A DNA stretch of 64,000 bases from Tubulanus polymorphus (Eukaryota; Animalia; Nemertea). Below the pieces are notes generated by a model. It was not told where the DNA came from and did no database searches. It saw only the letters and a list, made by a program, of their open reading frames with translations. Of this stretch, positions 28,831-59,493 are shown piece after piece. The position numbers and the translations under genes were made by a program. Position 1 is the stretch's first letter. Each line of letters begins with the position of its first letter. The stretch covers positions 4,996,914-5,060,913 of the forward strand of contig NC_134034.1 of assembly GCF_964204645.1 (NCBI RefSeq). The letters run 5' to 3'.

Positions 28831-29412
28831 AGTAATAGGGGTAATAGGCTTTCATACCAAAGGTCGAACGGTCGAGCCCATTAAAAAACAAAATATTAAA
28901 AAACTATAATATATTTTCATAACCGCGTGCATTTTATATCAAAACTAAGTATTTATTCTAAGATATCAATAATATAAAAAGCATATTGTATTAAATCAAT
29001 TGGTCGCTCCACTTCGCTACCGCTCCGCTCCGCGACCAATTGATTTAATTACAATACACAAATTCAAATAATCAAATATATTCAAATGATAATAATTATT
29101 CTATTATTCAACTGAAATGCACGCGGTTATGAAAATATATTATAGTTTTTTAATATATGTTATTAATGAACTCGATCATTAAACCTTTGATATGAAAGCC
29201 TATTACCCCTATTACTCTTAAAATATTCATATATATATGAATAACATTTAAATCATTGAACTTCTTAAATCAATTTTAATAAAAAATATAGTATTAAAAT
29301 GGAAGCAAATAAGTACTACTGCCCAACATGTAATATCGATATAGATAAATCTCAAAAAGCAAGACACAATAAAACTATAACACATTTAGAGAATAAATTG
29401 AAACTAGAATAT
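28831..29412. repeat. Left terminal inverted repeat (582 bp); first 386 bp form an imperfect palindrome
   Basis: Reverse complement of 46832-47413 with about three substitutions seen by eye. 28831-28855 pairs with 29192-29216. Confidence 0.95.
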
Positions 29413-29550
29413 TTACAGTTATATTCAGAACAGTTAACAAAGGGAAAGAAATTTATTGAATTATGGAATAATGATCCAAATAATGAACAATACGTTGAGG
29501 AATTTGATATCAAGGAATCGAAACAACTTATCAAAAGCAGCGAGGAATGA
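29299..29550 (+). CDS. Chimeric 83-aa ORF: TIR-duplicated pPolB N-terminal zinc finger fused to an HNH C-terminal remnant
   Basis: The first 38 aa match the pPolB start (one C/Y difference). LQLYSEQLTKGKKFIELWN resembles LQLYLDQLDKAKTFVELWN at the end of 29630-30298. Confidence 0.6.
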   Translation: MEANKYYCPTCNIDIDKSQKARHNKTITHLENKLKLEYLQLYSEQLTKGKKFIELWNNDPNNEQYVEEFDIKESKQLIKSSEE

Positions 29551-29629
29551 AAAAGGATGACGTTGGTCGAAGAAATGGAAGAGGATTCTAAAATTATTAA
29601 CCAATTTAGTAAAAAAATACGTATAATAA

Positions 29630-30298
29630 ATGGAACCAGAACAACCACAAATTATCAATATTACAAATAACACTGGCGTTATAAACATATACTACAAGAA
29701 GTGTTCTAAATGTGAATTAGATAAATTAGCTATAACAGAATTTAGTAAGCGTAAGATTAGCAAAGATGGTTTTCAAAATTGTTGTAAAACTTGTGCTAAA
29801 CTATACACCAAACAATATCGAGAAGATAATATAAAACATTATAATTATTATATGACAAAATATATGAGAGAAAGATATCAAACAGATCTTAATTTTAGAT
29901 TGAAACAATGTTTAAGGACTAGAATAACACAATTATTCAACAAAGAAACACATTCAGAAACACTATCTAATCTATTGGGTTGTTCAGATGAATTTCTCAA
30001 ATCATGGATAATATATCAATTCGACGATAAAATGAATATAGATAATTATGGTGAATACTTTCATATTGATCACGTGTTGCCGATTTCTAAATTTGATATG
30101 AGTGATGATTATAATAAGAAGCTAATCTGGAACTGGAGAAATTTAAGGCCTTTAGAAAAGAAAGAAAATATAATTAAATCCAATAAACTAGATTTACAGT
30201 TATATTTAGATCAACTGGATAAAGCAAAGACATTTGTTGAATTATGGAATAGTATTTCACAGAATCAACCGCATTCTGAGGTTTTGATCAGTGGTTAG
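29630..30298 (+). CDS. HNH-family endonuclease with N-terminal CxxC zinc ribbon (large-DNA-virus type)
   Basis: CSKC...CKTC, LLGCS, FHIDHVLP...NWRNLRPL...EN..KSNK motifs; TAAATG start. Confidence 0.8.
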   Translation: MEPEQPQIINITNNTGVINIYYKKCSKCELDKLAITEFSKRKISKDGFQNCCKTCAKLYTKQYREDNIKHYNYYMTKYMRERYQTDLNFRLKQCLRTRITQLFNKETHSETLSNLLGCSDEFLKSWIIYQFDDKMNIDNYGEYFHIDHVLPISKFDMSDDYNKKLIWNWRNLRPLEKKENIIKSNKLDLQLYLDQLDKAKTFVELWNSISQNQPHSEVLISG

Positions 30299-30646
30299 AA
30301 AGCTGGCAATTCTATTTGAGCTTTGTATGTATATAATACATAGCTTTTGCTTACTACTAAAACATATGTTGCCAAATATATCTTGTTTTCAATTCTAAAG
30401 AATTAATTAACTTCATCACAAAGAACATCTGTGCAGAAATAATTAGTTTTGTCGAACGTGCGCCACATCGGCAGTTAGAAATCAACTTTCACATACATAT
30501 TAGGCATCGGATATTCTCTCTCAAAACACAGTTTACAGTTCTAAATCTAAATGTAAGTACCGTTTTTTGTAGTTATTATGAAGTAGGGAAACCTTTAAAC
30601 ATATTTAAGTACAGTAATTCATTTTCACGATATCTTTTAGATTAAA

Positions 30647-31101
30647 ATGGAACACAAAGATCAACCAGAAATTCTAAGCCAACCAACGGATAAGGAACGA
30701 TTGCTACTGGATAGTGAAACTCAGGAATCAATAGAAATGGAGGATGAAACTCTCGTAATTGACGAACAAACTTCACAAAATTACAAGAACATTTGGACTA
30801 TCATCAAGAAATGGTGAAAATTCTGAGTGATGTAATACATAATAAACAATTACCGCGCGAACTACAATTACCAAAATTACCAGCAACGCGACTCAAATTG
30901 CTGTTGGGACTCAAAGAATCGAAAACTAAGAAAATGAGTGGAGATATCAGTGCCGGTTTTCTTTCAAAACTGAGAAGAGTAGGTAGATTAATAAAATATG
31001 AAAAATTCAAAATATTAGGATTAGCATTTAGTGAAGTAGTCAGATATTTACCAGAAATTGAAGAAATGATTGGAAACAATCCAGTAATTAAAGAATTCTA
31101 G
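30647..31101 (+). pseudogene. Frameshifted hypothetical gene
   Basis: TAAAATG start at 30647 (MEHKDQPEIL...). One apparent frameshift near 30780 would join it to ORF 30793-31101. Confidence 0.5.
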
Positions 31102-31201
31102 ACAAAATTATAAATTATAACACTGAAGGTCTTTGTAATATAGATATCAAAAATGTAATCTCGATTGTATATATCTGTTTTAATATTGTATTGATTACTG
31201 T

Positions 31202-31427
31202 TAACTGTGTATTGCGCAATAACCGGTCCGATTGAACCGCATTTCTATTGTTCTCCATTGTTCTACTATTGATCGTTGTTGACTGAAACAGCTGCTCAAT
31301 ATTGATTGGTTACAGTTCTATATTTGAATGTTGTAGTTTACAGAATAAAAATATAACTGTGTATTGCGCAATAACCGGTCCGATTGAACCGCTTTTCTAT
31401 TGTTCTCCATTGTTCTATTATCGATCG
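31202..31427. promoter_or_regulatory. Duplicated 74-bp putative enhancer containing ATTGCGCAAT
   Basis: Direct repeats at 31202-31275 and 31354-31427 in a non-coding gap; each has the perfect palindrome ATTGCGCAAT followed by AACCGGT. Confidence 0.45.
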
Positions 31428-31836
31428 CTAAAATTTGTATAATAAATATATGTGTTTATGAAATTAGATTTCCACCAGTCGTTTCTTTGAATTTATTTTC
31501 AGTTGAGGATTTGATATCGAGGATCCGAAATGACTTATCTGGACAGTTATAATTACTGCTCCTATAGATAGACAATAGTAGTGAGATAATCTAAATCCTA
31601 ATTTAAATAAAATATAATAAAAATTACATACCTTCAACTATCTATTATTTCTATTATATTTTTAATATTTTCTTTTCAAAAGAGAATACTTTATATTTTG
31701 AATAGATTTGAATAGAAATTCTTTAAATTCAAATAGCTAGTATCAGTAGTCAATACTAGAATTCTTTAGCTTTAACTAGCTAGTATCATTTGAAGAATAC
31801 TTATAACATTATTCTTATTAAATTTCTCTAATATAA

Positions 31837-32442
31837 ATGTCTAAGAAATCGAATAAGAATAATGTTAAAGTTGAAAAAACTTTGGAAGATTTAGGTTTAA
31901 CAGATGATAATGATAATGTGGCAACTAAATGTGATAATAAAATTGATAACAATATTGATTACGAGTACTATTTATATTGTAAGCATCATCTAGAACTATT
32001 AATTGCGAGTGGAAAAACTAAAGAGTTTATTGGTAAAACAATAACTTTTCAAGAATTAGATAATATGAACAAAGAAAAAGTAATCAAATATTTTAAGATT
32101 TATGAAGAGTCAAGATTAGCTAGAATAAATGATTCTATTTCAGATGGTATTGTCAAATGTTATTCTAAGTTATGTAACCAGTTAATACCAATTGATGATG
32201 AAAATAAATTATATAATGATTTGAAAAATGACTACTTAGTTATGACTGAATTACAAAAATGGGTTGGATATGCTTCATTCCAATTAGGATCGGTTATGAC
32301 GTTGATTTCTACTGGTGTCATAACATTTTCGAACATTAAACCTATGGAATATAAATCAGGTAAGAACGAAACAGATGTACTACAACAAAACATCGAAACA
32401 GAAAATGAATCAGAACAAAAATTAACTAAAATAAATGAGTGA
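31837..32442 (+). CDS. Hypothetical protein, 201 aa, with a C-terminal hydrophobic segment
   Basis: Intact ORF with TAAATG start, overlapping the next gene. Confidence 0.75.
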   Translation: MSKKSNKNNVKVEKTLEDLGLTDDNDNVATKCDNKIDNNIDYEYYLYCKHHLELLIASGKTKEFIGKTITFQELDNMNKEKVIKYFKIYEESRLARINDSISDGIVKCYSKLCNQLIPIDDENKLYNDLKNDYLVMTELQKWVGYASFQLGSVMTLISTGVITFSNIKPMEYKSGKNETDVLQQNIETENESEQKLTKINE

Positions 32443-32809
32443 TAGCGTTAAGAAAAAGGCTAGATCCGAGAAACAAATTAAATGGGCAAGAGAATTAGGT
32501 AAAAGATCTTCAGAATTAAAAAAAGCTAAGAAAAAGAAATTAACTGATATAAATGAATCACCTGATGATGCCGTACGACACCCGCACGGTGGTATTGATT
32601 CAAATAATAATCCATCTGATTCTTCTAATGTTGGAAGTAATTATAAATTATATATTACAATTGGATTAGTAACAGTTATTATATTATCCGGTGTAATATA
32701 TAAATCAAAATTCAAATCCAATGATAAAGATGATTCTAATGATAATAAACCCATCATACCAGAAAATAAATCAAATGAAAATAAATCTAAAATATTATTA
32801 ATGGATTAA
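32435..32809 (+). CDS. Small basic single-pass membrane protein, 124 aa
   Basis: Lys/Arg-rich N-terminus; hydrophobic stretch LYITIGLVTVIILSGVIY; TAAATG start. Confidence 0.75.
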   Translation: MSDSVKKKARSEKQIKWARELGKRSSELKKAKKKKLTDINESPDDAVRHPHGGIDSNNNPSDSSNVGSNYKLYITIGLVTVIILSGVIYKSKFKSNDKDDSNDNKPIIPENKSNENKSKILLMD

Positions 32810-32812
32810 AAT

Positions 32813-33901
32813 ATGATGAAAAAAGAACAATATTTAAGAGATTTGTATTATAACCCAGAAAGTGAAGTATCATATTCAAGTGTTTCGGAATTATGGGATA
32901 AAATTAAATCTGATAAAGAAAAAATAAAATATAGTGAATTAAAATCATGGTTACAAAATCAACCCACATATCAAATTCATAAAAAGATGGATAAAAAATA
33001 TTTAACAAGAAAAGTAATGGTTTCATATATCGATCAACAATGGCAAGCTGATTTAATTGACATGAAAAACTTAGAAGAATATAACAAAGGATATTTTTGG
33101 ATACTAAATGTTATAGATATATTCAGTAGATACGCATGGAGTATCCCGATTAAAAATAAAACTGGTATAGAAGTTACAAATGCTTTTAAATCTATATTTA
33201 AAGAAGCTATTCCAGATAAGATACAATTTGATGAAGGTAAAGAATTTTATAACAAACATTTTAAAAAACTATTATCTGATAACGATGTAGAATATTTTTC
33301 AACACACTCAGATAAAAAAGCATCTATTATAGAAAGATTTAATAAAACATTGAAAACTAGAATGTGGAAATATTTCACCGCTAATGAAACATATAAATAT
33401 ATCGATGTGTTAGATGATTTAGTGAAAGGTTATAATAATTCTAAACATAATTCTATAAATATGAAACCTATACAAGCTAGAAAAGAAGAAAATTCAGAAA
33501 TAGTTTGGAATAATTTATATGGAGCGTTTGTTACACACGATTTCGGTGAACCTAAATTTAAAATAGGACAACACGTTAGAATTTCTAAATATCGAAAAAC
33601 ATTTTATAAAGGTTATACCCCTAATTTTACAGAAGAAATATTTAAAATTAAAAAGATAATATTAACTAAACCATTTGTTTATAAATTGTTTGATTTAAAA
33701 GATGAAGAAATATTAGGTTATTTTTATGAACAAGAATTATCATTAGTACCAAATCCAGATGAAATAGAATACAAAATAGAAAAAGTATTGAAAACAAAAA
33801 CTCTTAAAGGAAAAAAGTATTCTTTGGTGAAATATAAAGGATATGATGATAAATTTAATGAATGGATTTTATCTAGTAAAATTAAAAGAATAAATGAATA
33901 A
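32813..33901 (+). CDS. int: Retroviral-like (RVE, DDE) integrase with C-terminal chromodomain
   Basis: WQADLIDM, IDIFSRYAW, QFDEGKEF and IERFNKTLK motifs; the C-terminal YKIEKVLK...LVKYKGY...NEWI is chromodomain-like; intact. Confidence 0.95.
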   Translation: MMKKEQYLRDLYYNPESEVSYSSVSELWDKIKSDKEKIKYSELKSWLQNQPTYQIHKKMDKKYLTRKVMVSYIDQQWQADLIDMKNLEEYNKGYFWILNVIDIFSRYAWSIPIKNKTGIEVTNAFKSIFKEAIPDKIQFDEGKEFYNKHFKKLLSDNDVEYFSTHSDKKASIIERFNKTLKTRMWKYFTANETYKYIDVLDDLVKGYNNSKHNSINMKPIQARKEENSEIVWNNLYGAFVTHDFGEPKFKIGQHVRISKYRKTFYKGYTPNFTEEIFKIKKIILTKPFVYKLFDLKDEEILGYFYEQELSLVPNPDEIEYKIEKVLKTKTLKGKKYSLVKYKGYDDKFNEWILSSKIKRINE

Positions 33902-34508
33902 AGATTTATTTATATTTGAACCGCATAATATGTTAGTTACTGGAGTTACAAATTGTGGTAAAACACATTTCATATTAGACTTGTTAGAAACTATTTATAA
34001 AAATCATTTTGATAATATAATATTATTCTGTCCTACTTATGAAATGAATGAAACGTATAATAGAGATATAGTTTTTAAAGATAAAAAGTTTATTATATTA
34101 AATTCTAAAACAGTGAAAGATAATTTAGATAATTGTATAAAAATTGCATTAGATATTTATAAAGGATCTAATACATTATTTATTATTGATGATTGCGCAA
34201 ATTTACATGATTCTAAAATTAGAGAAAGTGAGTTGTGTTATTTAGCTTTCTCTGGTAGACATTTTGGGATAACAACTTGGGTTTTAAATCAGAAATATAA
34301 TTCAATTGTGAAAGATTTTAGAGAGAATATAAGATTTCTAGTTTTATTCTACAACAAAGATAGAAAATCTATGCAACAATCATTGGAAGAAAATCAAATT
34401 ATACCTACTGAATTACATGATGAATATATGAATAAATTAAAAAATAATAAAGGTTCAAAATTATTACTGAGATTACAATTTCCTTATGAATATAAATTTA
34501 TAAAATAA
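33894..34508 (+). CDS. A32/FtsK-HerA family genome-packaging ATPase
   Basis: Walker A GVTNCGKT, Walker B FIIDD, SGRH and LNQ motifs; intact. Confidence 0.92.
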   Translation: MNKDLFIFEPHNMLVTGVTNCGKTHFILDLLETIYKNHFDNIILFCPTYEMNETYNRDIVFKDKKFIILNSKTVKDNLDNCIKIALDIYKGSNTLFIIDDCANLHDSKIRESELCYLAFSGRHFGITTWVLNQKYNSIVKDFRENIRFLVLFYNKDRKSMQQSLEENQIIPTELHDEYMNKLKNNKGSKLLLRLQFPYEYKFIK

Positions 34509-34524
34509 AATCCTAATTCAAAAT

Positions 34525-35095
34525 ATTATAGAATTCACTGTATATTGATGGATGAGTGGATGAATTGGATGAATTGGATGAATTGGAAGAGTGGATGAAT
34601 GGAAGAGTGTAATAATATATAATTTACATATGTTTTTTATTTTTAAAACAGTAAGAGTTCGATTTGAAGATGTCATATAATAATAAATATATTTTTATAA
34701 AATAATAAAATGACAGATAATAAATGTCATATAATAATAAATATATTTTCATAAAATAATAAATAATAAAATAATAAATAATAAAATGATAAATAATAAA
34801 TATATTTTTTATAAAATAATAAATAATAAAATGATAAATAATAAATATCATATAATAATAAATAATAAATATCATATAATAATAAATAATAAATGTCATA
34901 TAATAATAAATATATATTGTGTTAAATTTAATAAAGAATAAAAATATTATATTTATACTCATACTATTCTTCCAATTTATGTGTTAAAAAGTAAAATATA
35001 TATATTATTATACTCATCCACTCTTTCACTCATCCAATTCATCCAACTCTTCCAATTCATCCATTCATCCATCAATATACAGTGAATTCTATAAT
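34525..35095. repeat. Long inverted repeat enclosing an AT-rich minisatellite at the convergence point of the two gene arms
   Basis: ATTATAGAATTCACTGTATATTGATGGATGA.TGGATGAATTGG (from 34525) is the reverse complement of the sequence ending at 35095; AATAAATAATAAA repeats lie between the arms. Confidence 0.85.
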
Positions 35096-35099
35096 CTTT

Positions 35100-36167
35100 T
35101 TAATTTTCATTTTCATATTTTTCTTTAAGCTTATTGTATTCTAAATATATATCCATTTGCATTTTCTTTGATATAATTCCTGAATGATTCCCGAGTTTAT
35201 AATTCCTGAATGTTTTTCTTGAAAATATTTTTGGAATATAATTTTCGATTTCAGTTTTAGATGGATGTTTATTTAAAAATTCTCTAAAATCATCATATTT
35301 AAGTTCAAATAAGTTCATTGCATAACTTACATTTGGTTTAAAGTTATCTAACTTTTTCAATATGGTAACTATATCATTACTCAAGAAATAATCTATAAAT
35401 GTTTTTCTATACCACCGATAATCTAATATATTCTTATTATTAAATTTTGAATTTATAACTCTTGGATTTTCTATTACATTATCTGTACCAATATGTTTAA
35501 TTGAGTATTTATGATTCAATTGTTTATCATATATTACATATTCTTTACATTTTTCACACCAAGATTTAAATACTTTTATTGCATGGGCTGAATCATATCC
35601 ACTTTTTGTTTTTAATTTATAATGTTTTGCCCAATTAGCCTTTGTTATACATTCATTACAGAAAGCACAATAATTCTGATCCTCTTTACATTTATCTTTA
35701 TATATATTGGCATATGTTTTTACTAATTGTAAAATATGTTCATCTTTTTTGATGTGTAATAAATAATCATTATAATTATCAAAATCTTCTTCACAATACA
35801 TACATCTGATGTTATCTTTTGGTTGAACATTTGATTTTTCTATTTTAGGTTCAATATTATGTTCTATTTTAGGTTCAATATTATCATCATTCGATGTAGA
35901 AGGTATAACATTATCTTCTATTTTAGGTTCAATATTATTTTCTATTTTAGTTTCAATATTATCTTTTATTTTAGGTTCAATATTATCTTCTATTTTTATA
36001 TCAATATAATTATTACGTTCAATTAAATATTCTTTGTATTGATTTAATTCATTTAATAAAAATGTTCCAATATATTCATTTATTCTTTTATAAGGTATTA
36101 CATAATACAAATCATCATTGATTTCTTTATCAGCTTTGATTCTTTCATATACTTTACCTCCTTCCAT
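35100..36167 (-). CDS. Multi-zinc-finger (C2H2/U1-like) protein with IEPKIE.N repeats
   Basis: CMYC..H....H, CAFC..H and CEKC..H...H motifs; tandem 8-aa repeats; intact 355 aa. Confidence 0.75.
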   Translation of the reverse strand: MEGGKVYERIKADKEINDDLYYVIPYKRINEYIGTFLLNELNQYKEYLIERNNYIDIKIEDNIEPKIKDNIETKIENNIEPKIEDNVIPSTSNDDNIEPKIEHNIEPKIEKSNVQPKDNIRCMYCEEDFDNYNDYLLHIKKDEHILQLVKTYANIYKDKCKEDQNYCAFCNECITKANWAKHYKLKTKSGYDSAHAIKVFKSWCEKCKEYVIYDKQLNHKYSIKHIGTDNVIENPRVINSKFNNKNILDYRWYRKTFIDYFLSNDIVTILKKLDNFKPNVSYAMNLFELKYDDFREFLNKHPSKTEIENYIPKIFSRKTFRNYKLGNHSGIISKKMQMDIYLEYNKLKEKYENEN

Positions 36168-36199
36168 TTATTATATATATTTTTATTAAAGTTAAAATT

Positions 36200-37447
36200 T
36201 TAATACATAACACTATCTAATTGTGAATTTATAATATTTAATTGCGCGTCAGATATAATATAAATATGCATTTTAAAATTTTTGATTCCCTTTTTCTTTT
36301 TCATGAATAATTGTATTCCATCTTTTGTATTTTGTAGTTTTTTTCCAGAACCATGTAATGAATTATCTTCAGTTGTTCTAAAATCTAACCATAATGCATA
36401 TTTATTACCGGTATAATAATCAATTTGATTAATGTTACAATTTTCAAATGATTTTACTTTTTCATTCATAAAATGTTTTTTAATTTCTACCCATTGATCT
36501 ATCATTCTCATTCCTTGACAAAATATTTTATTTGCTATTCCTTCGATGGTTATTTCTACTTTTGTTATTTCAGGATTATAATAATTGTCAACATTTATTG
36601 CGCCATTAGTATACGTTCCAATAGTAAAAAATATTAATATACCTTTAATAGATCTTCTAGGAAAGTTAATATTCTCATTTATTATTTCATCATTTGCATT
36701 AATAGTTACAGTTTTAAATTTATCAATATAATCATATAATAATGAAAATCCTTGATTGTATTTAGTTTGAATTATACTTGAAATATTTTCATCAGTTACT
36801 GTATCATATTCTAAACATATATTCGATAATTTATAACTCATATCTTTATTAACGCTAGATATTACAATTTCATTTACAGGAGCAAATGTTATCTCAAATA
36901 TAACATCTTCTTGAATTGCGTATTTATATAAAGGTGCATTATTATTTATCAATTCAAAGTCTAATGGAATTTTATATTTGTTTCCATATATACTTTTTAT
37001 TAATTTATCTACATCATTTGTTAATATTGCGCTATTAGCTTCTGATCTTAATTTATTTTGGTTTTCTGATTGGATGCCTTGAAATATCATATTATTTCTA
37101 TTTTCTTTAGTTAACCATAAATCTTTATAATGCATAAATGAATTATAATCATCTAATGAGAAAACTGTTTCTGGACCAATCTTTATAGTTAACTTTTTAA
37201 TCAAATATCTTCCAACATTATCAACGACATAATTATTATTATTACCGATTACTTTTATATCGGCTGATAAATAAATACTGTTTGGAACATAAAAAGTATT
37301 TTGTGTTAATCTCGGAATTCTAACGTATAAAGTTTCATCGGGATTAATATTTGAAGGGTTATGAGTAATTATATGATGTGATCTTTCTGCTTTAATAGCA
37401 TTAGATATTCTATGATTCTTAGAAGGATTGATATAACTCCCACTCAT
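36200..37447 (-). CDS. Putative double-jelly-roll major capsid protein
   Basis: Intact 415-aa beta-rich soluble protein of MCP size, in a Polinton with ATPase and penton-like genes. Assignment is by size, context and strand pattern, not by a profile search. Confidence 0.7.
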   Translation of the reverse strand: MSGSYINPSKNHRISNAIKAERSHHIITHNPSNINPDETLYVRIPRLTQNTFYVPNSIYLSADIKVIGNNNNYVVDNVGRYLIKKLTIKIGPETVFSLDDYNSFMHYKDLWLTKENRNNMIFQGIQSENQNKLRSEANSAILTNDVDKLIKSIYGNKYKIPLDFELINNNAPLYKYAIQEDVIFEITFAPVNEIVISSVNKDMSYKLSNICLEYDTVTDENISSIIQTKYNQGFSLLYDYIDKFKTVTINANDEIINENINFPRRSIKGILIFFTIGTYTNGAINVDNYYNPEITKVEITIEGIANKIFCQGMRMIDQWVEIKKHFMNEKVKSFENCNINQIDYYTGNKYALWLDFRTTEDNSLHGSGKKLQNTKDGIQLFMKKKKGIKNFKMHIYIISDAQLNIINSQLDSVMY

Positions 37448-37471
37448 TTATTTAACAAAAAAATTAATTAT

Positions 37472-38950
37472 TTATTTTTTGATATTTTTTGATATCATAT
37501 TCACTAACCCAAAAATAATAGCACTTACAACTGTAATTAAAAATAAAATAATATGTTCAGCAGCAAAGTTAATAATGTTTCCTGCAGATTTCAATATAAA
37601 ACCAACAATTGAAGCAATAACTCCTGGTAAAGCTGCAGCAGATTTTTTAGATAGTTCCCATAAATATTTTGCTAATTTCTTTAAACCATCTTTAACTTTA
37701 TCTTGTATAGAATTATTTCCTGGGGGTTTATCTGGTTTATTTGGAGTGGGAGTAGGAGTAGATTTTAAAGCATTTGATATTGCTAAACCAATTGTTGTAA
37801 ATAACATAGTTACAGCTGTTAGAATTGAGAGAATTGTTATTCCTTCTAATTTAAATAATAATCTTATTCTGTCTTTTAATGATATTTCAGAATTTGGTTT
37901 AATCAACAAATCTTTAAAAATAACTTTTAATCTATTTATATTATAATCATATGATTTTAATAATAATTTAATTTCTTCTTTTTGTAATTCTATGTTATAT
38001 TCTAAATCATCTATTTCTTTTTCTAAATATGCATTTCTTTTTTTAAATTCAATTTCTTCAATAACTTTATTATCTCTATCTAATTTTAGTTGTTCTATTT
38101 CTTTATTTTTATCAGTTAATTCTTTTTCTAAAGTTCTAATTTTAAAATCTCTTATACTTTTATCATGCGCAATTTTATCAGATGCAAGTCTTAAACTAAT
38201 AATTTCTTTAATTGCTTTATCAGAAAATATATTTAAATCTTCTAATTCTTGTTTTGTTGCATCAATTAATCCATTCGGTAAAAGTTTTTCAATTGGAATT
38301 TTATTTGATTTAAGTTTACTAGTTTTGGAAGTTATATTCTGTTCAGAACTTGTTTCTGGTTCTAAATTATTATCGATTGTTTCAAATAATTCATTAATTC
38401 TTTGTTTAAATACTCTTTCATTTTTAATAATTTCTTCTTGTGTTACATCTTCTATTTCATTACTATTTCTTATTCTTTTAATTCTAGATAGTAATGAGTC
38501 AGACTTAAGCAAAGTTGATTCTGCTAATATTTTGTTTTGTTTTTTATAAGAGATATCAATATAATAATCATCTTTCAAATGATAATAATATTCACCATCT
38601 AAAGATTTTAATTCTTGTACTAAAAGTCTGGCGCCTCTAGCATTGATATTATATCCAGATTTTTCAAATATAGGTTTGAAATTATAAATATATTCATTAT
38701 ATTCTAAATTTTGTTTTACTAAATCTGGATTTTCATTTTCAGGATTTATTCTCGATCTAGTTCTTCTATCAAATTCATCTGTTGATTGACCTTTAGAACC
38801 ACTATCTGCTAAATTAGAATTATATGCTGATTCATCATCATTATCAATATTAGTTTCATTAAAATCGGGTTGTGGTTTATCATCAATATATCCTTCATTA
38901 TTATTTCCCATGTTTTCCATTTCATAATCTTCTCCACCTTCTACATCCAT
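37472..38950 (-). CDS. Coiled-coil protein with multiple C-terminal hydrophobic/amphipathic helices (putative virion membrane protein)
   Basis: Acidic N-terminus, heptad-rich middle, hydrophobic ITILSILTAVTMLFTTIGLAI, Pro-rich linker, then AALPGVIASIVGFIL and IILFLITVVSAIIFGLV. Confidence 0.8.
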   Translation of the reverse strand: MDVEGGEDYEMENMGNNNEGYIDDKPQPDFNETNIDNDDESAYNSNLADSGSKGQSTDEFDRRTRSRINPENENPDLVKQNLEYNEYIYNFKPIFEKSGYNINARGARLLVQELKSLDGEYYYHLKDDYYIDISYKKQNKILAESTLLKSDSLLSRIKRIRNSNEIEDVTQEEIIKNERVFKQRINELFETIDNNLEPETSSEQNITSKTSKLKSNKIPIEKLLPNGLIDATKQELEDLNIFSDKAIKEIISLRLASDKIAHDKSIRDFKIRTLEKELTDKNKEIEQLKLDRDNKVIEEIEFKKRNAYLEKEIDDLEYNIELQKEEIKLLLKSYDYNINRLKVIFKDLLIKPNSEISLKDRIRLLFKLEGITILSILTAVTMLFTTIGLAISNALKSTPTPTPNKPDKPPGNNSIQDKVKDGLKKLAKYLWELSKKSAAALPGVIASIVGFILKSAGNIINFAAEHIILFLITVVSAIIFGLVNMISKNIKK

Positions 38951-38966
38951 TTACATAATAAAAAAA

Positions 38967-40268
38967 TTAAAATTTAAAATATAATATTCCTCCGATTACA
39001 ATTCCTATACAAGTTATAGCTAATTTAGTATTTTCATGGGATTTATTATCATCATTTTGTTTAATTATATCATGTTGAATAATATCAGTTTTAATATCTT
39101 CTGATGTATTGTAATCTTTTATTTTAGAATCATTATTTAATTTAATATTCTTAGTTTTAGTTTCAGTTGATTGAATGTGTTTTTTATTTTTTTCACCTTC
39201 CATTAATTTTGGAGCAGTAATAATCTTTTTATTTATATCATTTAATCCAAATGAATTATTTATTGTTGCAGTTTTAATTAGATTATTATAACCAATTATA
39301 TTTCCCATCTTTAATACTAAATCATTAGAAATAATTAATAGATTAGGGCCTATACAATAATTAAGTCTTACATGAGATTTATCTAAATAATTTTGATATC
39401 TTATAATGTTTTCTGGAATCGATCTATTTTTATCATTATGAATTGAATCTTCAAATAAAACTTTAAACTGTTTCTGCGCATCGAATGAAGTGTTATCATT
39501 TCCAATTATTGGGGATCTTGTTTCAACTTGCGCACCTAGAATACAAATTAAATAAGTTCTAATAGATTGATTTATTCTTTGTATACCTGATTTTGTAAAA
39601 CCTTCACCATTTTTTAAAATGAAATTAACCCAACCATTATTATTATCAATTTTATAATTATGATAAGCTGAAATTCTATGCATATAATCAATTCTTTTTA
39701 TTTCAAACTCTTCACCAACACCTTGCAATTTACCATGCGCTCTAAAATCGGAATTAATATTTATATTAAATTCATTACATATTTTATAAAACTTAGATAG
39801 ATTAATATTATTATCCAATTCTTTGAAATATTTAGACCCGGGTAAAGGACATTCTAATTCATTTAATATTATTCTGATTTGAAAATATGTGTGAAATCTA
39901 AATATTGTGTGAATTAATTTTAAATCAGAATACTTCAAATTTTTATCTAAGTTATTTAAATGATCATTCCAACTTATTCCACATCCTGTTGTTGCACAAT
40001 AAACAGCAAAATCTAATTGATTCTGCCAATATTTCATATTAGATTTTACTTTATATATATGGTATTCATCTCGGGTAAAAGTAACTTCATATGTATTAAA
40101 TATATTTTCCATTTTAGAAATAAAAAACTGTGATTCAGTAACATAAATTTCTAAATTAGTTAATGAATTTAAAACTACATTTCTATATGTAATATTTTTC
40201 TTAAAATCTATTGCAGGAATATTATATTTAATTGATTTATTATATTGGAAAGCTTTTGGAAAACCCAT
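38967..40268 (-). CDS. Conserved 433-aa protein with C-terminal membrane anchor
   Basis: Intact. WQNQLDFAVYCATTGCGISW core shared with element 2; tail LAITCIGIVIGGILYF. Confidence 0.8.
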   Translation of the reverse strand: MGFPKAFQYNKSIKYNIPAIDFKKNITYRNVVLNSLTNLEIYVTESQFFISKMENIFNTYEVTFTRDEYHIYKVKSNMKYWQNQLDFAVYCATTGCGISWNDHLNNLDKNLKYSDLKLIHTIFRFHTYFQIRIILNELECPLPGSKYFKELDNNINLSKFYKICNEFNININSDFRAHGKLQGVGEEFEIKRIDYMHRISAYHNYKIDNNNGWVNFILKNGEGFTKSGIQRINQSIRTYLICILGAQVETRSPIIGNDNTSFDAQKQFKVLFEDSIHNDKNRSIPENIIRYQNYLDKSHVRLNYCIGPNLLIISNDLVLKMGNIIGYNNLIKTATINNSFGLNDINKKIITAPKLMEGEKNKKHIQSTETKTKNIKLNNDSKIKDYNTSEDIKTDIIQHDIIKQNDDNKSHENTKLAITCIGIVIGGILYFKF

Positions 40269-40284
40269 TTATATAATTAAAAAA

Positions 40285-40719
40285 TTAATAATTAACTAAT
40301 TCTTTTAATAATTTATCTTGTTCTTCAACTGTTATATGACCATTTAAACTTATTATATAATCTAGTGTATTCTTCAATTTATTAATTTCTTTTATATTAG
40401 TTTTAATTTTTTCTTTATTACTTATTATATTTAATTTTGAACTTATACCAGTTAAAACACTTGAACTTAATCCTAATACACCAATTGATATAGCTAAAGG
40501 TGTTAATGGACTGAATATTGCTAGAAATGTTATTACAGAACTAATTGTAACCGAACCACTAATAATAAGATAATATATAATTTTAATTTTTAAATATTTT
40601 TTCTTTTTTATCTTTAAGTCACTTTCAAATTCTAATATTTGTTTTTCTAAATATGTTTTTAATTTAGTTTTATTTATATCATGAGGAATAATATCAATAC
40701 TATCAACTTTATCTTCCAT
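40285..40719 (-). CDS. Two-TM membrane protein, 144 aa
   Basis: Hydrophobic hairpin flanked by coiled-coil-like segments; homolog at 61316. Confidence 0.78.
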   Translation of the reverse strand: MEDKVDSIDIIPHDINKTKLKTYLEKQILEFESDLKIKKKKYLKIKIIYYLIISGSVTISSVITFLAIFSPLTPLAISIGVLGLSSSVLTGISSKLNIISNKEKIKTNIKEINKLKNTLDYIISLNGHITVEEQDKLLKELVNY

Positions 40720-40738
40720 TTATTTAGAAAAAAAATTA

Positions 40739-41161
40739 CTAATTAGTAAATTTATAAGCAACAAATATAACAATAACTGTTCCACCTAAAATCCATATTA
40801 TTTCATATTTCTGTTGTTCTTTACTTGGGGTATAATAATCTGATAATTTAGGTTTGTATAGATGTAATTTTTTTTTATTGGTTACCGCGTTATATAAACT
40901 CATTGCATCATCAACTGATTGAAAATCTCTATGTGAAATCTTCTGATCATATAATTCTTTATTGATGTAATCCATATAGTTTTGTCTCTTTTCTCTATAT
41001 TCTTCTGCAGCTTTATTGTATTTCTCTTACGCTAAATTGTGTCTTCTTTGTTCTCCTAATGAACTATTTTTATCAATATGTTTAAATAAATAACCACCAC
41101 CAGTAAATGCTAAAGCGTTAACAATTGCTGATCCTATAATAGTTATAATTGCAGAAGCCAT
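40739..41161 (-). pseudogene. 140-aa membrane protein gene with one in-frame stop
   Basis: Collinear with intact 60873-61295; TAA at 41027-41029 replaces TTA (Leu). Confidence 0.85.
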
Positions 41162-41186
41162 TTATTTAGCAAAAAAAATTATACAT

Positions 41187-41408
41187 TTATATGGGAGGAA
41201 TATATTTTTGTTTTTCTAAATAATCAATAGTTAAATTAGATAAAGTAACTGCTAACGTTAACTTTAAAATATCATTTATATCAAATCTATCAACATTAAC
41301 ACTTCCCATTTTGAATACTTTTTTTAATACCATTGAATAACCAACAGTTCCAACTGATAGTAATGCGCCATTATATAATCCAGTTATTATCCACTTATTA
41401 TCACTCAT
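41187..41408 (-). CDS. Small hydrophobic protein, 73 aa
   Basis: Differs from 60627-60848 by one residue; two hydrophobic segments. Confidence 0.8.
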   Translation of the reverse strand: MSDNKWIITGLYNGALLSVGTVGYSMVLKKVFKMGSVNVDRFDINDILKLTLAVTLSNLTIDYLEKQKYIPPI

Positions 41409-41750
41409 TTATTTATCAAAAAAATTACTATCATCAAAATATTTAGTTAACTTATTTATGATTAATTCAACATTTATTTCATTACTACTTTTATGATTAT
41501 CATATATTTTGGATAATATGTTTTTGATATCTTCAATAATTCCATCTTCATTTAATTCATAATATTCTAAAGGTGATTTAATTAAATCAATTACTTTTTC
41601 TATATTATACTTTTCTTTATCAATCATTGATGCATTGTTAAATGATTTACTTTTTATATCAGTAATTACATCATTTAGTTTAATTCTCATTTCTTTACCA
41701 TGTTTAAAATCAAACCCAAAACATATACTCGGTCCAACAGTTATATTCAT
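41409..41750 (-). CDS. Hypothetical protein, 113 aa
   Basis: Homolog at 60267-60626 with conserved ends. Confidence 0.78.
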   Translation of the reverse strand: MNITVGPSICFGFDFKHGKEMRIKLNDVITDIKSKSFNNASMIDKEKYNIEKVIDLIKSPLEYYELNEDGIIEDIKNILSKIYDNHKSSNEINVELIINKLTKYFDDSNFFDK

Positions 41751-41767
41751 TTATATAGTGAAAAAAA

Positions 41768-42526
41768 TTACTCTCTACATCTTATAACTAATTCATAAAT
41801 TACAGGGAAATTATTTAAATCAATTAAGTATCCATTATGATTTCTAATTTCTAATCTAAAATTATTAAATTTAGGAATGCAAGGTTTGAAATCACATTCT
41901 GTTAAATTATAATTTATTTGCGTTCCAAATTCTTTAACATTTTTTAATGGTAAAATATTTAATATACTAGAATTACATGTTGTATCTTTAGTTGCTTCGA
42001 ATGTTTTTGTTGGGTCAATTAAATTGCAATAAATATAAAAATGTGTAAAAGGTATTATATTTGAAATACCTTCTACGTTTACTGTAACAACATCTGGTTC
42101 AATTCCTAGCAATTTAGCTATAGGTTTTTTTACCATAAATGCATGTTGACTTTCATCAAATACCTTTATTTTAATTCTATTTGAGCTATCACTTTTTATA
42201 AATCTTATTAAAAATTTATCATCTTTTCTAATTTTCAGCCGTGCTCTACGATTAATTTCTTGAGATAATGTTTCTAAATTATATAATCCTGGTCTTAGAA
42301 ATAGATGAAACCATTTATTTATATTTCTAACATGAATTAAAAAAGTATTATGTTCAATAGTTTTATTCGATATATTGTAAAAAGAATTACATAAACTTAT
42401 ATTTACTAATTTTAAATCTACACAATTCTTGAATTCTCTATCTAATTGTACTAATAAATTATGAGATTTATAATTTGTAAGTTTTCTAGAATCAACAAAT
42501 ATTCTGTATTCTTTTAATTCCGCCAT
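41768..42526 (-). CDS. Putative minor capsid (penton-like single jelly roll) protein
   Basis: Pattern IFVDSR...NSFYNI...PGLYN...LG...YIYCNLI...LEIRN.NG.LIDLN.FPV.YEL, typical of Polinton/virophage minor capsid proteins. Confidence 0.7.
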   Translation of the reverse strand: MAELKEYRIFVDSRKLTNYKSHNLLVQLDREFKNCVDLKLVNISLCNSFYNISNKTIEHNTFLIHVRNINKWFHLFLRPGLYNLETLSQEINRRARLKIRKDDKFLIRFIKSDSSNRIKIKVFDESQHAFMVKKPIAKLLGIEPDVVTVNVEGISNIIPFTHFYIYCNLIDPTKTFEATKDTTCNSSILNILPLKNVKEFGTQINYNLTECDFKPCIPKFNNFRLEIRNHNGYLIDLNNFPVIYELVIRCRE

Positions 42527-42543
42527 TTATTTTACATATTTTC

Positions 42544-42885
42544 TTATTCAAAATCTATTTCATGGTGCCCTTTTTCATTCTTACCTTTGTATACGAAATA
42601 GAAATCTCCAGAACATAATTCTTCTAGATCTTCACTTGATAATCTATGAAATCTATCTGGTAAATAAGTTCTGAATTTATATTTATTTCCTTTTAATCCT
42701 TCATATTCTAAATGAATTATTAATTTATCTCCATATTTATTAGTAATTGTTTCAATGTTAGTAATTAAATATTTCTTGTGAATTGTTAATTCTGTTAACT
42801 TTTTAAATTTATAATCTACAGATTTGACGCTTGAAGTATCTTTAATTCTATCTAAGAATTCACTGTGTACTTGTTTACTCTCCAT
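42544..42885 (-). CDS. Small beta-rich protein next to pPolB, possible OB-fold ssDNA-binding protein
   Basis: FKKLTEL..YLIT....NKYG...YLPDRF; conserved in element 2. Function is inferred. Confidence 0.6.
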   Translation of the reverse strand: MESKQVHSEFLDRIKDTSSVKSVDYKFKKLTELTIHKKYLITNIETITNKYGDKLIIHLEYEGLKGNKYKFRTYLPDRFHRLSSEDLEELCSGDFYFVYKGKNEKGHHEIDFE

Positions 42886-42913
42886 TTATTATACAAATTT
42901 TTATTGAAATTGA

Positions 42914-45900
42914 TTAACACGCTAGAATCCTTTTCATAATCTCATTTTCTTTTGTTTCTTCTCTTTTGAATTTTATATATTCATCTAAATTGCAACCATA
43001 GGCGACTGTGTGGATTCCATCATCTAAAATATATCTTTTATCATCAAATGGGTTTAGACTTATCTTCTCTATCTCTTCAATATATATTTCATGATCTTCA
43101 GATCTTAAACATTTCATTTTATGTTTTCTAACTTCTTCATTAAATATACAATTGATGAAATCTTTGAAATGAATATTCTTTTCTACTACACTTTTGGTTA
43201 TTCCTTTTAACTTTTTAGCTTCATGTTCTTTAGTTTTATATGAATACATTTTAGATCTAATACCAATGAACTCTATCATTTCTTCACCGCCTAATTCATC
43301 CTTAAACTTACCAGGAACTTTTTTATTATCATTGCTAAATAGTTCATGATTTTTTGGATAGTTACTAAAATCAAAATGGTGTTTTAATATTTTTAAATCA
43401 TCTTTTATATTATCACTTTTTATCTTTAATATGTACGCATCAGTATCTAGATATAATATTTCTATATTCTTTTCCCCAAAATGGGGTTGCAATACATTAT
43501 AATAGAATTCATACATCAATAGCTTTGAAATTTCTAAAACTGCAGCTCCAACATAAATAGGTTTATTGAACTTCATAGAAGTTCTTTTTAATTTAACTGC
43601 AGCTAAATTTTCATCGAATATTCTATTCCCTATGAATTTCGGATACGATTGCAAATGTCTAATTCTTTTACCATTACTAACTAACTCAATATCATTTCTA
43701 TTTCTAATATTTTCACATGTTTTTCCATAGAACGCATTATTCATCAGTTTAAAGTAATCCTTCTCAAAATCAGTTTTAGCTTCAGTTCTCTGTGTAGTAT
43801 TAAAATCTATATATTTTTCTAACCACTTAGATTGATTAAATGAAATATATCTATGTACTTTTTTTAATATCATTCCTTGATTCAAATAGAATTTTAACAT
43901 TCTATAATGTACTACATAATTATATTTATCTTCTTGAGTTACCATTAACTTTTCAGTATGAATATGATTTTCAGGTTTAATTCTTTTTTGATAATTTGAT
44001 AATTCTTTATGTTTAACAGTTTTATGTTCGGGACAGTAAGCTAGATTTCTAGATTTGAATTTAATATTTTCAGGGTATTCTAAATCTATAACAAAGAACT
44101 AACCAGTATCTGAATCATCTGCAATATCTAGAATTCTTTTCTTCCAATCAAATTTATCAATTTGTAAAACTTCAGTTATTTCAAACATCCCATAAGGTTG
44201 TGGTTCCATCATTGCCCAACCATAAAGATTATTTGCATCTATGTATAATAATTTATATCCAGGATTATCATTTACATTGAAATATCTATCACCCAATACA
44301 CCTGAAACACCTCCTCTTATAGATTTTTCAAATAATAGTAATTGATCTATATTTGTTAACAAATCCATTTTTATATTTGTAAATTTTAATCCACAATCCC
44401 ATGTTAATCCTGGGCTAGAATAACAATGACAAGGATCAATATTAAAATATTTTAGGTTTACATCTCTAAACCTTTCGAATATATCGGTTAATAATAATAC
44501 ATCTGATTTTAAATATAAATCTACTAATTGTCCATGATTTTTAATTTCGAAATGATTCCAAATATTCAATGTTCTATTATAGACTTCATCTTTAACATAT
44601 TCATATTTTAATTCATCATAGAATTGTTCTTTCAATAATTCAGTTATTTTAAAATCATTATGATTTTTATAGAAAGAATATGGAATTGCACCTTTATATC
44701 TCATTAATTTAAAATCATCATAATTTGGGTAATATTCTTTTAATATCTTTAATTCATCATCAACTAATGATTTTGATAAGTTATCTAATGAACTATTTAA
44801 AAATCTATATAAATCTATAAATCTTAGACAACCAAATTGGAATGATATATAATTCTCAGATGTTTTAGCTAACATTCTAAATTTATAAGTTGGTATTTTA
44901 TCTTTTGATTTATTTGAATTTATTATTTCTATTTCATTATTAATTTCTTCTATTTAATGACACAGTTGTTTAATGAATAAATGCGCGTCATACCCCGATA
45001 AATTGTGAAATATAATGGGGACAAAATTTACTTTTTTAGCTTGCAAATTACAATTCTCATGTGCAGCGCCTCTAAATTTACCATTCAAATGATCATGGTC
45101 TCTTACTTTTTTATCTTTATAATTAAATAGTTTTTCACAATAATAACATTTATCTGCAAACGCAAATTCTTCTTTATCTTCTTCTGTCATAATTATTTCT
45201 TTATTTGTATTCAATAATTTACTAAATCTTATTTCATATTCAATTAATAAGTCACAAAAATGATTGATAACATTTTCATTTCTATAATGATAATATTCAC
45301 TTTCAATTAGTTCTGGATAATCAGATTTAATATATAACCCGAAAGCTGCAGCTGATTGATGAATCTTTTTAATAGTATTTGTTTTTGGTGGTTCTTCTGA
45401 ATAATCACTTTCATTAGAATTTAATTTCTTTCTTTTATAATATATATCTTTTCTATCTTTATCTGTTAATTCTTTATTTAATGATTCAAAATCTCCATAT
45501 ATTACAAATGGTACTTTATTTTTGTAATCATATTTTTTGAATTCTAATATTTTATCTTTTTCATTTGGTAAAACTAATTTACAATAATCATGATTATCAC
45601 ATAGTTGTTTATGATTTAATAATGTACTTTCATTACTAAATTTATGTAAACATTTTCTACATAGATATATTTTATTATGGTGATCACTTTCTGTTCTAAA
45701 GAATAAATCTATTTGTTTAATCCACATATAATGATTCTCATAATATAGTATATCTATAACATCATTTGAATCATAATCTTTTGATAGGTATAAAGGTTCT
45801 AATGTATAATGTTTAATATTATTTCCTTTTGTATTTGGTAATTTAATTAAATCAAATACATTTATCTTTAAATTATTATCTCTTTCTATTTTTGGGATGT

Positions 45901-46945
45901 TTTTAATTCTAACAGGATACTTATCTATCTTATAATTATTTTCAAATTGTTTATAATGAGTTAATCTAAAACTATGTGTAATATCTTCTGTTGGATGTAA
46001 ACAACTTATTATAGCCCATATAAAACATTTATTATCAAAATTTTGTATATTTATTACACCATTAGTTTTAAATGGTAATTTAATATAACTTGTTCCATTT
46101 ATACTATCATCTTTATAATATGATAAATTATTTTCATCAATTGGTTTTGATTTAGTTAACTTATTATATTTTGTGTTATAAACATGTAAAGTTATAAATA
46201 TTATCTCATCAAATATTAAACCAGATCCTTCAAAATATTTCTCTTCTATTTTAGTTTTTATTTCATTATAACATTTATCTAATTTATCATCTATATGTTG
46301 TTTAGATATAATATGTTGTGAATGAGAATTTATATTATATATTGGTTTATCTTCAGATTTTATAAACTTTACTTTAACTGATATACTAATTTTAGGATAT
46401 TCAACATCTGTAATTATTTTTATTATTTCTTTCATATTTTCTAAATGTTTTTTATTTTCTTCTAATGTTTTACCTTTATGAAATTTAAACTCAATAGCTG
46501 CTGGACCAATATCACTTTTAAATGCTTCGGTTATCTCTATATCTTTTTTATTATCTAATGAATTAATATAATTTCTTACATCTTCCATGTATGGTCTTTT
46601 ATTGTTTAATTTATTTTTTATTCTTTTAATTGTCTTCTGTTTCTTATCATTATCATTATCAAAATAATCTTCACCTAAAATATCATTATTCTTATTTCTA
46701 ATATGACTTATAGATTTTAAATGTTCTTTATAATATCTTTTATCACTGAATGATTGATTACATGTATCACATTTGTATGTTTCTTTTTCATTCTTTAATT
46801 CTTCTAATTTAGTTTCTAATATATCATCCTTATATTCTAGTTTCAATTTATTCTCTAAATGTGTTATAGTTTTATTGTGTCTTGCTTTTTGAGATTTATC
46901 TATATCGATATTATATGTTGGGCAGTAGTACTTATTTGCTTCCAT
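42914..46945 (-). pseudogene. polB: Protein-primed family B DNA polymerase (1343 codons) with two in-frame nonsense mutations
   Basis: Exonuclease motifs YGDFES, FHNLSGYD, YLKSDV; polymerase motifs YIDANNLYG, KLMNNAFYGK, YLDTD. The three ORF pieces share one frame, split by TAA (44954-44956) and TAG (44099-44101) where element 2 has Lys and Tyr. Confidence 0.96.
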
Positions 46946-47413
46946 TTTAATACTATATTTTTTATTAAAATTGATTTTAGAAGTTCAATGATTTAAATGT
47001 TATTCATATATATATGAATATTTTAAGAGTAATAGAGGTAATAGGCTTTCATATCAAAGGTTTAATGATCGAGTTCATTAATAACATATATTAAAAAACT
47101 ATAATATATTTTCATAACCGCGTGCATTTCAGTTGAATAATAGAATAATTATTATCATTTGAATATATTTGATTATTTGAATTTGTGTATTGTAATTAAA
47201 TCAATTGGTCGCGGAGCGGAGCGGTAGCGAAGTGGAGCGACCAATTGATTTAATACAATATGCTTTTTATATTATTGATATCTTAGAATAAATACTTAGT
47301 TTTGATATAAAATGCACGCGGTTATGAAAATATATTATAGTTTTTTAATATTTTGTTTTTTAATGGGCTCGACCGTTCGACCTTTGGTATGAAAGCCTAT
47401 TACCCCTATTACT
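46832..47413. repeat. Right terminal inverted repeat (582 bp)
   Basis: Reverse complement of 28831-29412; includes the pPolB upstream region and first 38 codons. Confidence 0.95.
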
Positions 47414-54800: not shown

Positions 54801-55130
54801 CCTCATATCTAATCAACCTTTCAGCTGGGGTAAATCTATTGCTACCTCTCTATGTCACATCAATTTTAGCTGTCTCTGGGAAAACCAAGGCTCTCTGTGT
54901 ATCAATAAGTCTATCAAATCTCTCTCTCTTATTGTCAAGAACCAATATTCTAAAGAATGGCTAGCTTATATAAATGATTCTTCTAGTAATCCTCTTTTAA
55001 GATCCTACAAATTATTTTCTAACAAATTTTGCCATGGACAATTACTAATATCTTATAACTATTTCTGCAGGCGGGAATTTACCAAAATAAGAGTCAGCTC
55101 TCACAAACTATCAATTGAAACTGGGAGGCA
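51809..55130 (+). pseudogene. LINE ORF2: AP endonuclease plus reverse transcriptase
   Basis: WNIDG, LVETH, GDFNA, TIDF (APE); NYRGI, KQGCVLSPLLFN, LLYADD, YLGI (RT); several stops and frameshifts. Confidence 0.92.
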
Positions 55131-55282
55131 AGTAATAGGGAATAAGTTGTTTCATACCAAAGGTCGAAGGGTCGAGCTCATAAAAAATAAAAAATAAATT
55201 CTCGCAAACTCGAATTTATTTTTTATTTTTTACTCACTCGCCCCTTCAACCTTTGATATGAAACAACTTATTCCCTATTACT
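55131..55282. repeat. 152-bp imperfect terminal palindrome of element 2
   Basis: AGTAATAGGGAATAAGTTGTTTCATA ... TATGAAACAACTTATTCCCTATTACT. Confidence 0.92.
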
Positions 55283-55361
55283 CTTAAAATATTCATATAT
55301 ATGAATAAAATATAAATGAATAACTTCTAAAATCAATTTTAATAAAAAATTTAGTATTAAA

Positions 55362-59476: not shown

Positions 59477-59493
59477 GAAAATATGTAAAATAA

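Follow-up and report, generated by a model that had tools for sequence, protein, structure and literature searches.

Poxvirus-like promoter motifs in an animal Polinton lineage: two forms among the closest relatives, sorted in part by gene family

The locus and its genes

The window analysed here is a stretch of 64,000 nucleotides from the nemertean Tubulanus polymorphus (contig NC_134034.1, positions 4,996,914 to 5,060,913), consisting of DNA of about 38% GC with retroelement remains, in which lie two copies of a Polinton/Maverick element whose promoter motifs are the subject of this report. Element 1 is AT-rich (20-25% GC) and is a Polinton, carrying terminal inverted repeats (TIRs; arms at 28831-29412 and 46832-47413, with 99% identity), a 6-bp target-site duplication (CCCAAC, identical on both flanks), a DNA polymerase B of the protein-primed type (pPolB), an rve integrase, a major capsid protein (MCP), a penton and an A32-type ATPase. 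The adenain-like cysteine protease typical of Polinton group 1 gave no Pfam match among the open reading frames (ORFs) of element 1, several of which are without a family; the gene content of Polinton group 2 is described as variable (10.64898/2026.06.19.733378). Element 2 is about 90% identical to element 1. The features are as follows.

28831..47413, no strand assigned: element 1, Polinton/Maverick provirus, 18.6 kb, TIRs beginning AG
55130..64000 (left end approximate), plus strand: element 2, inverted copy of element 1, running off the window end
29630-30298, plus strand: HNH-like gene (HNH Pfam match on the L001 relative only, E 0.0055)
32813..33901, plus strand: rve integrase with chromodomain, start context TAAAAT-ATG
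33894-34508, plus strand: A32-type ATPase (Pfam Pox_A32, E 2e-12)
35100-36167, minus strand: zinc-finger gene, 355 aa (Cys/His motifs in the sequence; no Pfam match)
36200..37447, minus strand: MCP, 415 aa (Pfam Capsid_N, weak at E 0.006; 924 homologues)
37472-38950, minus strand: 492-aa gene, C-terminal hydrophobic segment
38967-40268, minus strand: 433-aa conserved gene, family of 38 ORFs
40285-40719, minus strand: 144-aa gene, hydrophobic
60873-61295: 140-aa hydrophobic gene, open here in element 2 and frameshifted in element 1
41409-41750, minus strand: 113-aa gene, no hydrophobic segment, no family
41768-42526, minus strand: penton, 252 aa (fold match to PBCV-1 6ncl_a6, Z 15.2, rmsd 2.9, 138 aligned)
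42544-42885, minus strand: predicted OB-fold single-stranded DNA-binding protein (SSB), 113 aa, beside pPolB (BFVD phage SSB, E 2.4e-4)
42914..46945, minus strand: pPolB (Pfam DNA_pol_B_2, E 1.8e-10), broken into three ORFs

We take the 433-aa gene to be the one labelled 'PZ'. The fold search with the penton returned PBCV-1 6ncl_a6 first, followed by the mavirus and Sputnik pentons. A sequence search of the PDB with the MCP gave no match, the model of the SSB-like protein matched no PDB fold at E<=0.001 (the weak matches including PRD1 P12 at E 0.019), and atlas searches with the 113-aa (41409-41750) and 492-aa genes returned nothing usable. Pfam scans of the element and its relatives (26 + 37 proteins, among which small ORFs without a family remain) gave no RNA polymerase (RNAP) subunit.

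Promoter motifs of element 1

The starts of nearly all genes of element 1 are preceded by one of two forms of upstream sequence, referred to as T-class (a T-run) and A-class (an A-rich tract).

37445..37466, minus strand: T-class promoter of MCP, TAA-T7-N6-TAAATG
38948..38969, minus strand: T-class promoter of the 492-aa gene
40266..40287, minus strand: T-class promoter of the 433-aa gene
40717..40738, minus strand: T-class promoter of the 144-aa gene
41159..41181, minus strand: T-class promoter of the 140-aa gene
41406..41427, minus strand: T-class promoter of a 73-aa gene, within the last codons of the upstream gene (motif non-coding in L003)
41748..41770, minus strand: T-class promoter of the 113-aa gene at 41409-41750 (A-type in relative L003)
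42524..42551, minus strand: A-class promoter of penton
42883..42910, minus strand: A-class promoter of the predicted SSB (T-type in L003)
36165..36190, minus strand: A-class promoter of the zinc-finger gene (class unchanged in L001 and L002)
46943..46970, minus strand: A-class promoter of pPolB, TAAAATG initiator, inside the TIR (copy at 29274-29301, plus strand)
29605..29632, plus strand: A-class promoter of the HNH-like gene (T-type in L001 and L013)
33870..33896, plus strand: A-class promoter of the ATPase, inside the integrase 3' end

The original prediction had described seven consecutive genes with T6-8-N5-7-TAAATG, and all seven sites were located: the T-runs of 6-8 nt begin on the minus strand at 41767, 41424, 41178, 40735, 40284, 38966 and 37463, each with TAA before it and TAAATG at the gene start 5-7 nt after it. 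Element 1 contains T6-N5-7-TAAATG 7 times, where 300 shuffles gave 0.17 on average and never 7, and the A-rich pattern 6 times (one of these being the TIR copy of the polymerase start), where the shuffles led to an expectation of 0.47 and never gave 6; both patterns were derived from the original observation, so that these counts are post hoc and the real test lies in the relatives. TAAAT or TAAAAT stands at the start codon of all 18 listed genes of element 1 (14 TAAATG, 3 TAAAATG and 1 TAAAAT-ATG), the background being given by the 60 of 689 ATGs of the element that TAA precedes.

The A-rich promoters ascribed to pPolB, the SSB-like gene, the zinc-finger gene, HNH and penton are present, although the A-tract ends 8-10 nt before TAAAT and not about 11 nt before it as had been proposed (its AATAA part ends about 12 nt before), and the ATPase has to be added to the class. 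The description of the T-block as virion and membrane genes is not supported for the 113-aa gene at 41409-41750; a virion role of T-block genes besides MCP is suggested by conservation and hydrophobicity. As had been claimed, the architecture is kept in element 2, where the class is the same at 9 of the 9 promoters shared within the window (3 A-class and 6 T-class) and only spacer bases differ within 15 nt of the ATG, which is weak evidence because the copies are about 90% identical. Neither element contains an exact match to the poxvirus early consensus, of which the host DNA has one.

Lineage restriction of the TAAATG start

Relatives were collected by an MCP-alignment search that yielded 83 loci (80 of 192 confirmed metagenome loci and 3 in genome contigs), from which those conserved genes were taken whose 5' end was complete, whose length was close to full and which had 30 nt or more of upstream sequence (74 loci, 354 genes); starts were set at the first in-frame ATG, a choice that may be wrong in some cases. 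TAAATG is found at 51 of 56 starts in the clade of the window and at 17 of 17 in a second clade (68/73 together), as against 5 of 53 in other loci below 40% GC and 2 of 228 in GC-richer loci (7/281 together), with a background of TAA before any ATG of 1-6% in the relatives; the five AT-rich outgroup cases come from L069, L071 and L080. In the MCP tree, a quick tree with a long-branch warning (L025 and L065 being assigned by identity and not from this tree), TAAATG is present in 14/15 window-clade rows, 4/4 second-clade rows and L071, all of them within one 25-row group of which six rows are without the motif, compared with 0/41 in the other group. Since AT-rich relatives mostly are without the motif and the tree confines it to one group, TAAATG is, on these sequence counts, characteristic of a lineage and not explained by AT content.

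Upstream of the start, the 99 dereplicated promoters (of 120, with 21 near-duplicates or fragments removed) share a positional signal relative to the T of TAAAT, with A at -15 to -13 and T at -12 to -9, the T at -9 occurring in 85% of the 99; this signal is absent in 1,222 non-start TAAAT controls (826 + 396). Twelve head-to-head TAAATG pairs were found with 15-34 nt between the start codons (L009:368-401, L010:786-821, L013:2015-2048, L027:6445-6478 and eight more), gaps that exclude stop-start coupling there and leave no room for ordinary RNA polymerase II (Pol II) leaders. These gaps, like the lineage restriction and the positional signal, are counted in favour of a poxvirus-type promoter. 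The pairs have the appearance of bidirectional mini-promoters, often with one AAATTT-like core that serves as T-run for one gene and as A-run for the other.

Outside the TAAATG clades, the AT-rich lineages L020, L021, L028, L058 and L082 have starts ranging from TAAAATG to TAAAAAATG and no TAAATG, which may reflect a different initiator or a mere A-rich start context. Several GC-rich relatives without TAAATG (L030, L043, L044, L050, L052 and L066) have a short CTAAAACGT-like motif at a varying distance before the MCP start, possibly a promoter type of their own. Clade-level MCP relatives (51% identical; cluster P0045) are filed under several Bartonella assemblies on contigs of 0.5-1.6 kb, which are likely to be eukaryotic contamination. 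MCP searches of viral contigs gave no relatives.

Resemblance to poxvirus promoters

In vaccinia virus, the intermediate core lies about 11 nt and the late core about 6 nt before the initiator, with TAAAAT in the case of G8R (PMC12722222), and the spacing of the two forms described here fits these cores, in keeping with the geometry originally predicted. Late promoters have a T at the tenth base upstream, which intermediate promoters do not have; A32L and D13L are intermediate, and membrane proteins are among the late genes (PMC11980589). Furthermore, TAAA is read directly by vaccinia RNAP, and no strict consensus exists for the intermediate core (PMC12917281). In all seven T-class sites the late features are found: TAAAT(G/A) at the start, a core rich in T lying 5-7 nt upstream, and T at -10. 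As regards intermediate features, the AATAA of A-class sites ends about 12 nt upstream and -10 is mostly A, the A-run reaching that position. The A32-type ATPase is A-class in 4/4 closest elements, in agreement with vaccinia A32L, and the pPolB initiator TAAAAT is like that of G8R. Among other large DNA viruses, the asfarvirus and pacmanvirus late TATATA, the mimivirus early AAAATTGA and the Cafeteria roenbergensis virus (CroV) late TCTA do not match (PMC5294985, PMC11788076), and TAAAT-like motifs are reported from a few ranavirus promoters (PMC5294985). Virophages are described as sharing the late promoters of their helper (PMC6428243; 10.64898/2026.07.28.741278).

Two forms and their sorting by gene

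The original prediction had held that the two forms are sorted by gene function into classes mirroring the intermediate and late promoters of poxviruses. The set of closest relatives comprises five elements with 46 promoters and MCPs 70-77% identical, which are kin, so that the counts are non-independent and the p-values generous. Within this set, the number of T at -13 to -7 is bimodal, with peaks at 2 and 6-7, and a two-component model gains 31 log units in leave-one-out, compared with -12 to -22 after column shuffling. The A form has an upstream motif of its own, TTT-N-AATAA at about -21 to -13, which recurs across unrelated genes. Always T-class are MCP (5/5) and the 492, 433, 144, 140 and 73-aa genes (2/2 each); always A-class are the ATPase (4/4), penton (2/2) and the zinc-finger gene (2/2), with the polymerase seen once. 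The class is kept in 9 of 15 families (permutation mean 5.3, p 0.025), and when virion-block and enzyme genes were compared according to the prior split, 18/21 and 5/16, respectively, were T-class (p 0.0016).

A number of results weigh against reading the forms as functionally sorted temporal classes of poxvirus type. Class switches occur in the other 6 of the 15 families (HNH, integrase, SSB-like, 113, 124 and 201-aa genes), and penton, A-class in the window and in L003, is T-class in L009 and L065. Without the window the virion/enzyme split is borderline (12/13 vs 5/10 T-class, p 0.05), and in distant relatives the link is absent (13/35 vs 3/12, p 0.5). Across 53 more distant promoters the two-component model scores -16, inside the shuffled range, and both classes have T at -9 (91% in close relatives), as would fit one promoter type. 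The match of the A-class to the vaccinia intermediate core, itself without a strict consensus, is loose, and MCP is T-class, yet its vaccinia homologue D13L is intermediate. In viral contigs, the scans for the two motifs gave scattered single matches, at least 120 for one (at least 19 of them opening an ORF of 60 aa or longer) and 81 for the other (16 of them doing so); many were phage-like, and no helper candidate was among the matches listed.

The existence of two promoter classes is statistically real among the five closest elements, the wider relatives having one A-tract/T-tract design, in the form of a single AAA/TTT junction near -12/-11 that is often common to two head-to-head genes. 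The class is inherited by gene family, in part, more than expected by chance; strict sorting by function was rejected, given the A-class penton and the switching SSB-like, integrase and HNH genes, and in copies other than those of the window the link between class and function is borderline among close relatives. Because the two classes hold only in the closest elements and the single design is found elsewhere, the two forms probably split recently, within a sub-lineage, from one ancestral AAA/TTT core with a fixed T at -9, single genes being able to move between forms.

Proposed mechanism and alternative explanations

Nearly all genes of the element have at their start a signal of TAAAT type, preceded by an A/T core in T-run or A-tract form. 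It is likely, to judge from the motifs, that a poxvirus-type polymerase of a helper transcribes the element in the cytoplasm from TAAAT, using post-replicative promoters; the polymerase would start at TAAAT and, by slipping, give the transcripts a 5' poly(A) leader. When incoming or excised, the element would be a naked template unable to use early promoters, and intermediate-type promoters would be the earliest class open to the polymerase, ATPase and DNA-binding genes, with MCP and the hydrophobic-protein block waiting for the late factors of the helper. More tentatively, the A form could be intermediate-like and active earlier, and the T form late-like, later and stronger, both read by the RNAP of a co-infecting poxvirus-type virus. 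Such timing is favoured, in this tentative sense, over a difference in strength because the A form has its own repeated motif, in-between forms are scarce, and a naked template can reportedly use intermediate promoters first (Keck et al. 1990).

The strength alternative, which we consider doubtful, supposes one post-replicative late-type helper promoter whose output is high where the T-run is long, as for abundant virion proteins, and low where an A-tract has a single T, as for enzymes and for low-copy parts like penton and ATPase, with no cascade. It explains the penton and the frequent class switches better. Penton and ATPase, low-copy by established capsid stoichiometry, are both A-class. 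It also accommodates the T at -9 of both classes, the unimodal spread in distant relatives and the head-to-head pairs in L010 and L009, which use one tract as T-run and A-run, and known virophages are described as using late promoters only (PMC6428243). The TTT-N-AATAA motif of the A form, however, exceeds what the loss of a T-run requires, and the T counts of close relatives leave few in-between forms.

Transcription by another polymerase, whether that of an undescribed non-pox large DNA virus or host Pol II/TBP at an AT-rich initiator, is improbable. Internal AATAAA, examined as a test of nuclear versus cytoplasmic transcription, is not depleted in any group (ratio 0.95 in clade A and AT-rich outgroups alike) and gives no separation of these two modes. 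Pol II has a TATA-to-start spacing of about 30 nt; the core lies here 6-17 nt before the ATG, and the head-to-head gaps of 15-34 nt are too short for that spacing. The scattered viral-contig matches and the few ranavirus promoters with TAAAT-like motifs (PMC5294985) would suit such a polymerase, whereas the motifs of asfarvirus, pacmanvirus, mimivirus and CroV differ from TAAAT.

It is very improbable that TAAATG serves translation, through stop-start coupling or as a start context rich in A, with the upstream tracts as by-products of AT-rich spacers: the TAA of the 73-aa gene is the stop codon of the gene before it, and other AT-rich lineages have A-rich contexts at their starts, for example TAAAAATG, but this TAA is the one such case in element 1, head-to-head pairs have no upstream gene, TAAATG is scarce in AT-rich outgroups and the upstream signal is position-specific.

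That T-runs are 3'-end signals of the upstream gene (TTTTTNT or poly-T) is hardly credible as their main role, which is largely refuted, a secondary role being possible: although the T-runs of the window lie in 7/7 cases within about 15 nt of the upstream stop, the gap between T-run and TAAAT is 5-8 nt in 34/36 (search window 3-10) and is constant with the upstream stop 0, 91, 153 or 325 nt away, T-runs occur in head-to-head gaps with no upstream gene, and TTTTTNT is near 1/21 stops without a following promoter vs 10/26 with one. The depletion of TTTTTNT in coding regions (17 vs 47 expected) was rejected as a sign of termination, long A-runs being depleted too (25 vs 53), as general homopolymer avoidance explains.

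Further features of the elements and their relatives

The TIR takes in the polymerase promoter and its first codons (29274-29550), so that a second copy of the promoter and a stub of 83 aa stand at the other end, directly before the HNH-like gene. Where the ATPase and zinc-finger genes converge, an inverted repeat of 115 nt (88%; 34507-34621 / 34999-35113) at their 3' ends flanks an AT-rich repeat tract and may be an end signal or a rearrangement scar. About 1.4 kb outside element 1, two 36-nt TIR-like stretches (repeat family D20; 27293-27478) may represent a remnant or a miniature element, and the DNA between the two Polinton copies (48317-54239) contains BEL/Pao-like (DUF1759) and LINE-like (Exo_endo_phos) fragments. 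In element 2, the 433-aa gene is broken at an exact 300-nt duplication (61829-62128 / 62406-62705). Two Polintons of the TAAATG clades carry deoxynucleoside kinase (dNK) genes (Pfam E 1e-31; L003:10340-10981 and L007:2895-3377, both minus strand), that of L003 with a T-class promoter; a nucleotide-supply gene would fit cytoplasmic replication.

Significance

How the genes of animal Polintons are expressed, and whether these elements are viruses in their own right or parasitize other viruses, is a long-standing question, which a lineage-restricted poxvirus-type promoter makes directly testable. It is possible that this lineage of animal Polintons consists of integrated virophages of poxvirus-type viruses, in a sub-lineage of which a two-step programme evolved through the intermediate and then the late machinery of the helper. 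If so, the promoters would point to an undiscovered pox-like virus of the host, the virophage lifestyle would extend to animal proviruses and include a helper-dependent element that draws on more than one stage of its helper, and the motif would provide a sequence tag sorting Polintons into helper-dependent and host-transcribed lineages.

Comparison with known systems

What is new here is that the motif is restricted to a lineage, that the T-runs are rejected as terminators, and that the two classes are confined to a sub-lineage with imperfect gene sorting. The literature search, which covered titles, abstracts and main texts in mainly non-subscription journals, gave no description of poxvirus-type promoters in Polintons, and the word 'promoter' is absent from the main texts of PMC8502044, 10.64898/2026.06.19.733378 and a second 2026 preprint. 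Element 1 resembles Maverick-Polintons and adintoviruses in its TIRs, 6-bp duplication, pPolB, rve integrase, MCP, penton and A32-type ATPase (PMC8502044; 10.64898/2026.06.19.733378), and differs from them in TAAATG, missing in most sampled relatives, and in that no adenain protease was seen. The entomopoxvirus-associated Polinton-like viruses (Barth et al. 2024, PMC11296320) are similar as proposed poxvirus hyperparasites; in the main text of that paper the words promoter, motif, upstream and TAAAT do not occur, and these elements are ungrouped, with highly divergent MCPs (10.64898/2026.06.19.733378).

The yeast pGKL elements likewise have TAAAN initiators giving 5' poly(A) leaders and, unlike element 1, bring an RNAP gene of their own and rely on an upstream element that is early-like (PMC6211774). 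Mavirus and Sputnik (Lavidaviridae) are also small, integrating, capsid-encoding elements whose promoters match those of a cytoplasmic large DNA virus (PMC6428243). They differ from the present case in that the host genome here is of animal type, the MCP of Polinton type and the motif of pox type instead of mimivirus/CroV type, in that two promoter forms stand here against one late motif, in that no protease was found here, and in that the match rests here on descriptions of vaccinia. We take mavirus to have pPolB as well as an rve integrase, and pGKL are linear elements of pPolB type that are not known to have a capsid.

Compared with vaccinia virus, the motifs here lie in an integrated Polinton in which no RNAP gene was seen, both classes share T at -9, MCP is T-class in contrast to the intermediate D13L, and the polymerase is A-class in contrast to the early replication genes of poxviruses. 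In both systems, the TAAAT(G) initiator overlaps the start codon, a T-rich core 5-7 nt upstream is opposed to an A-rich one further up, and the A32-type ATPase falls into the A/intermediate class and hydrophobic proteins into the T/late class.

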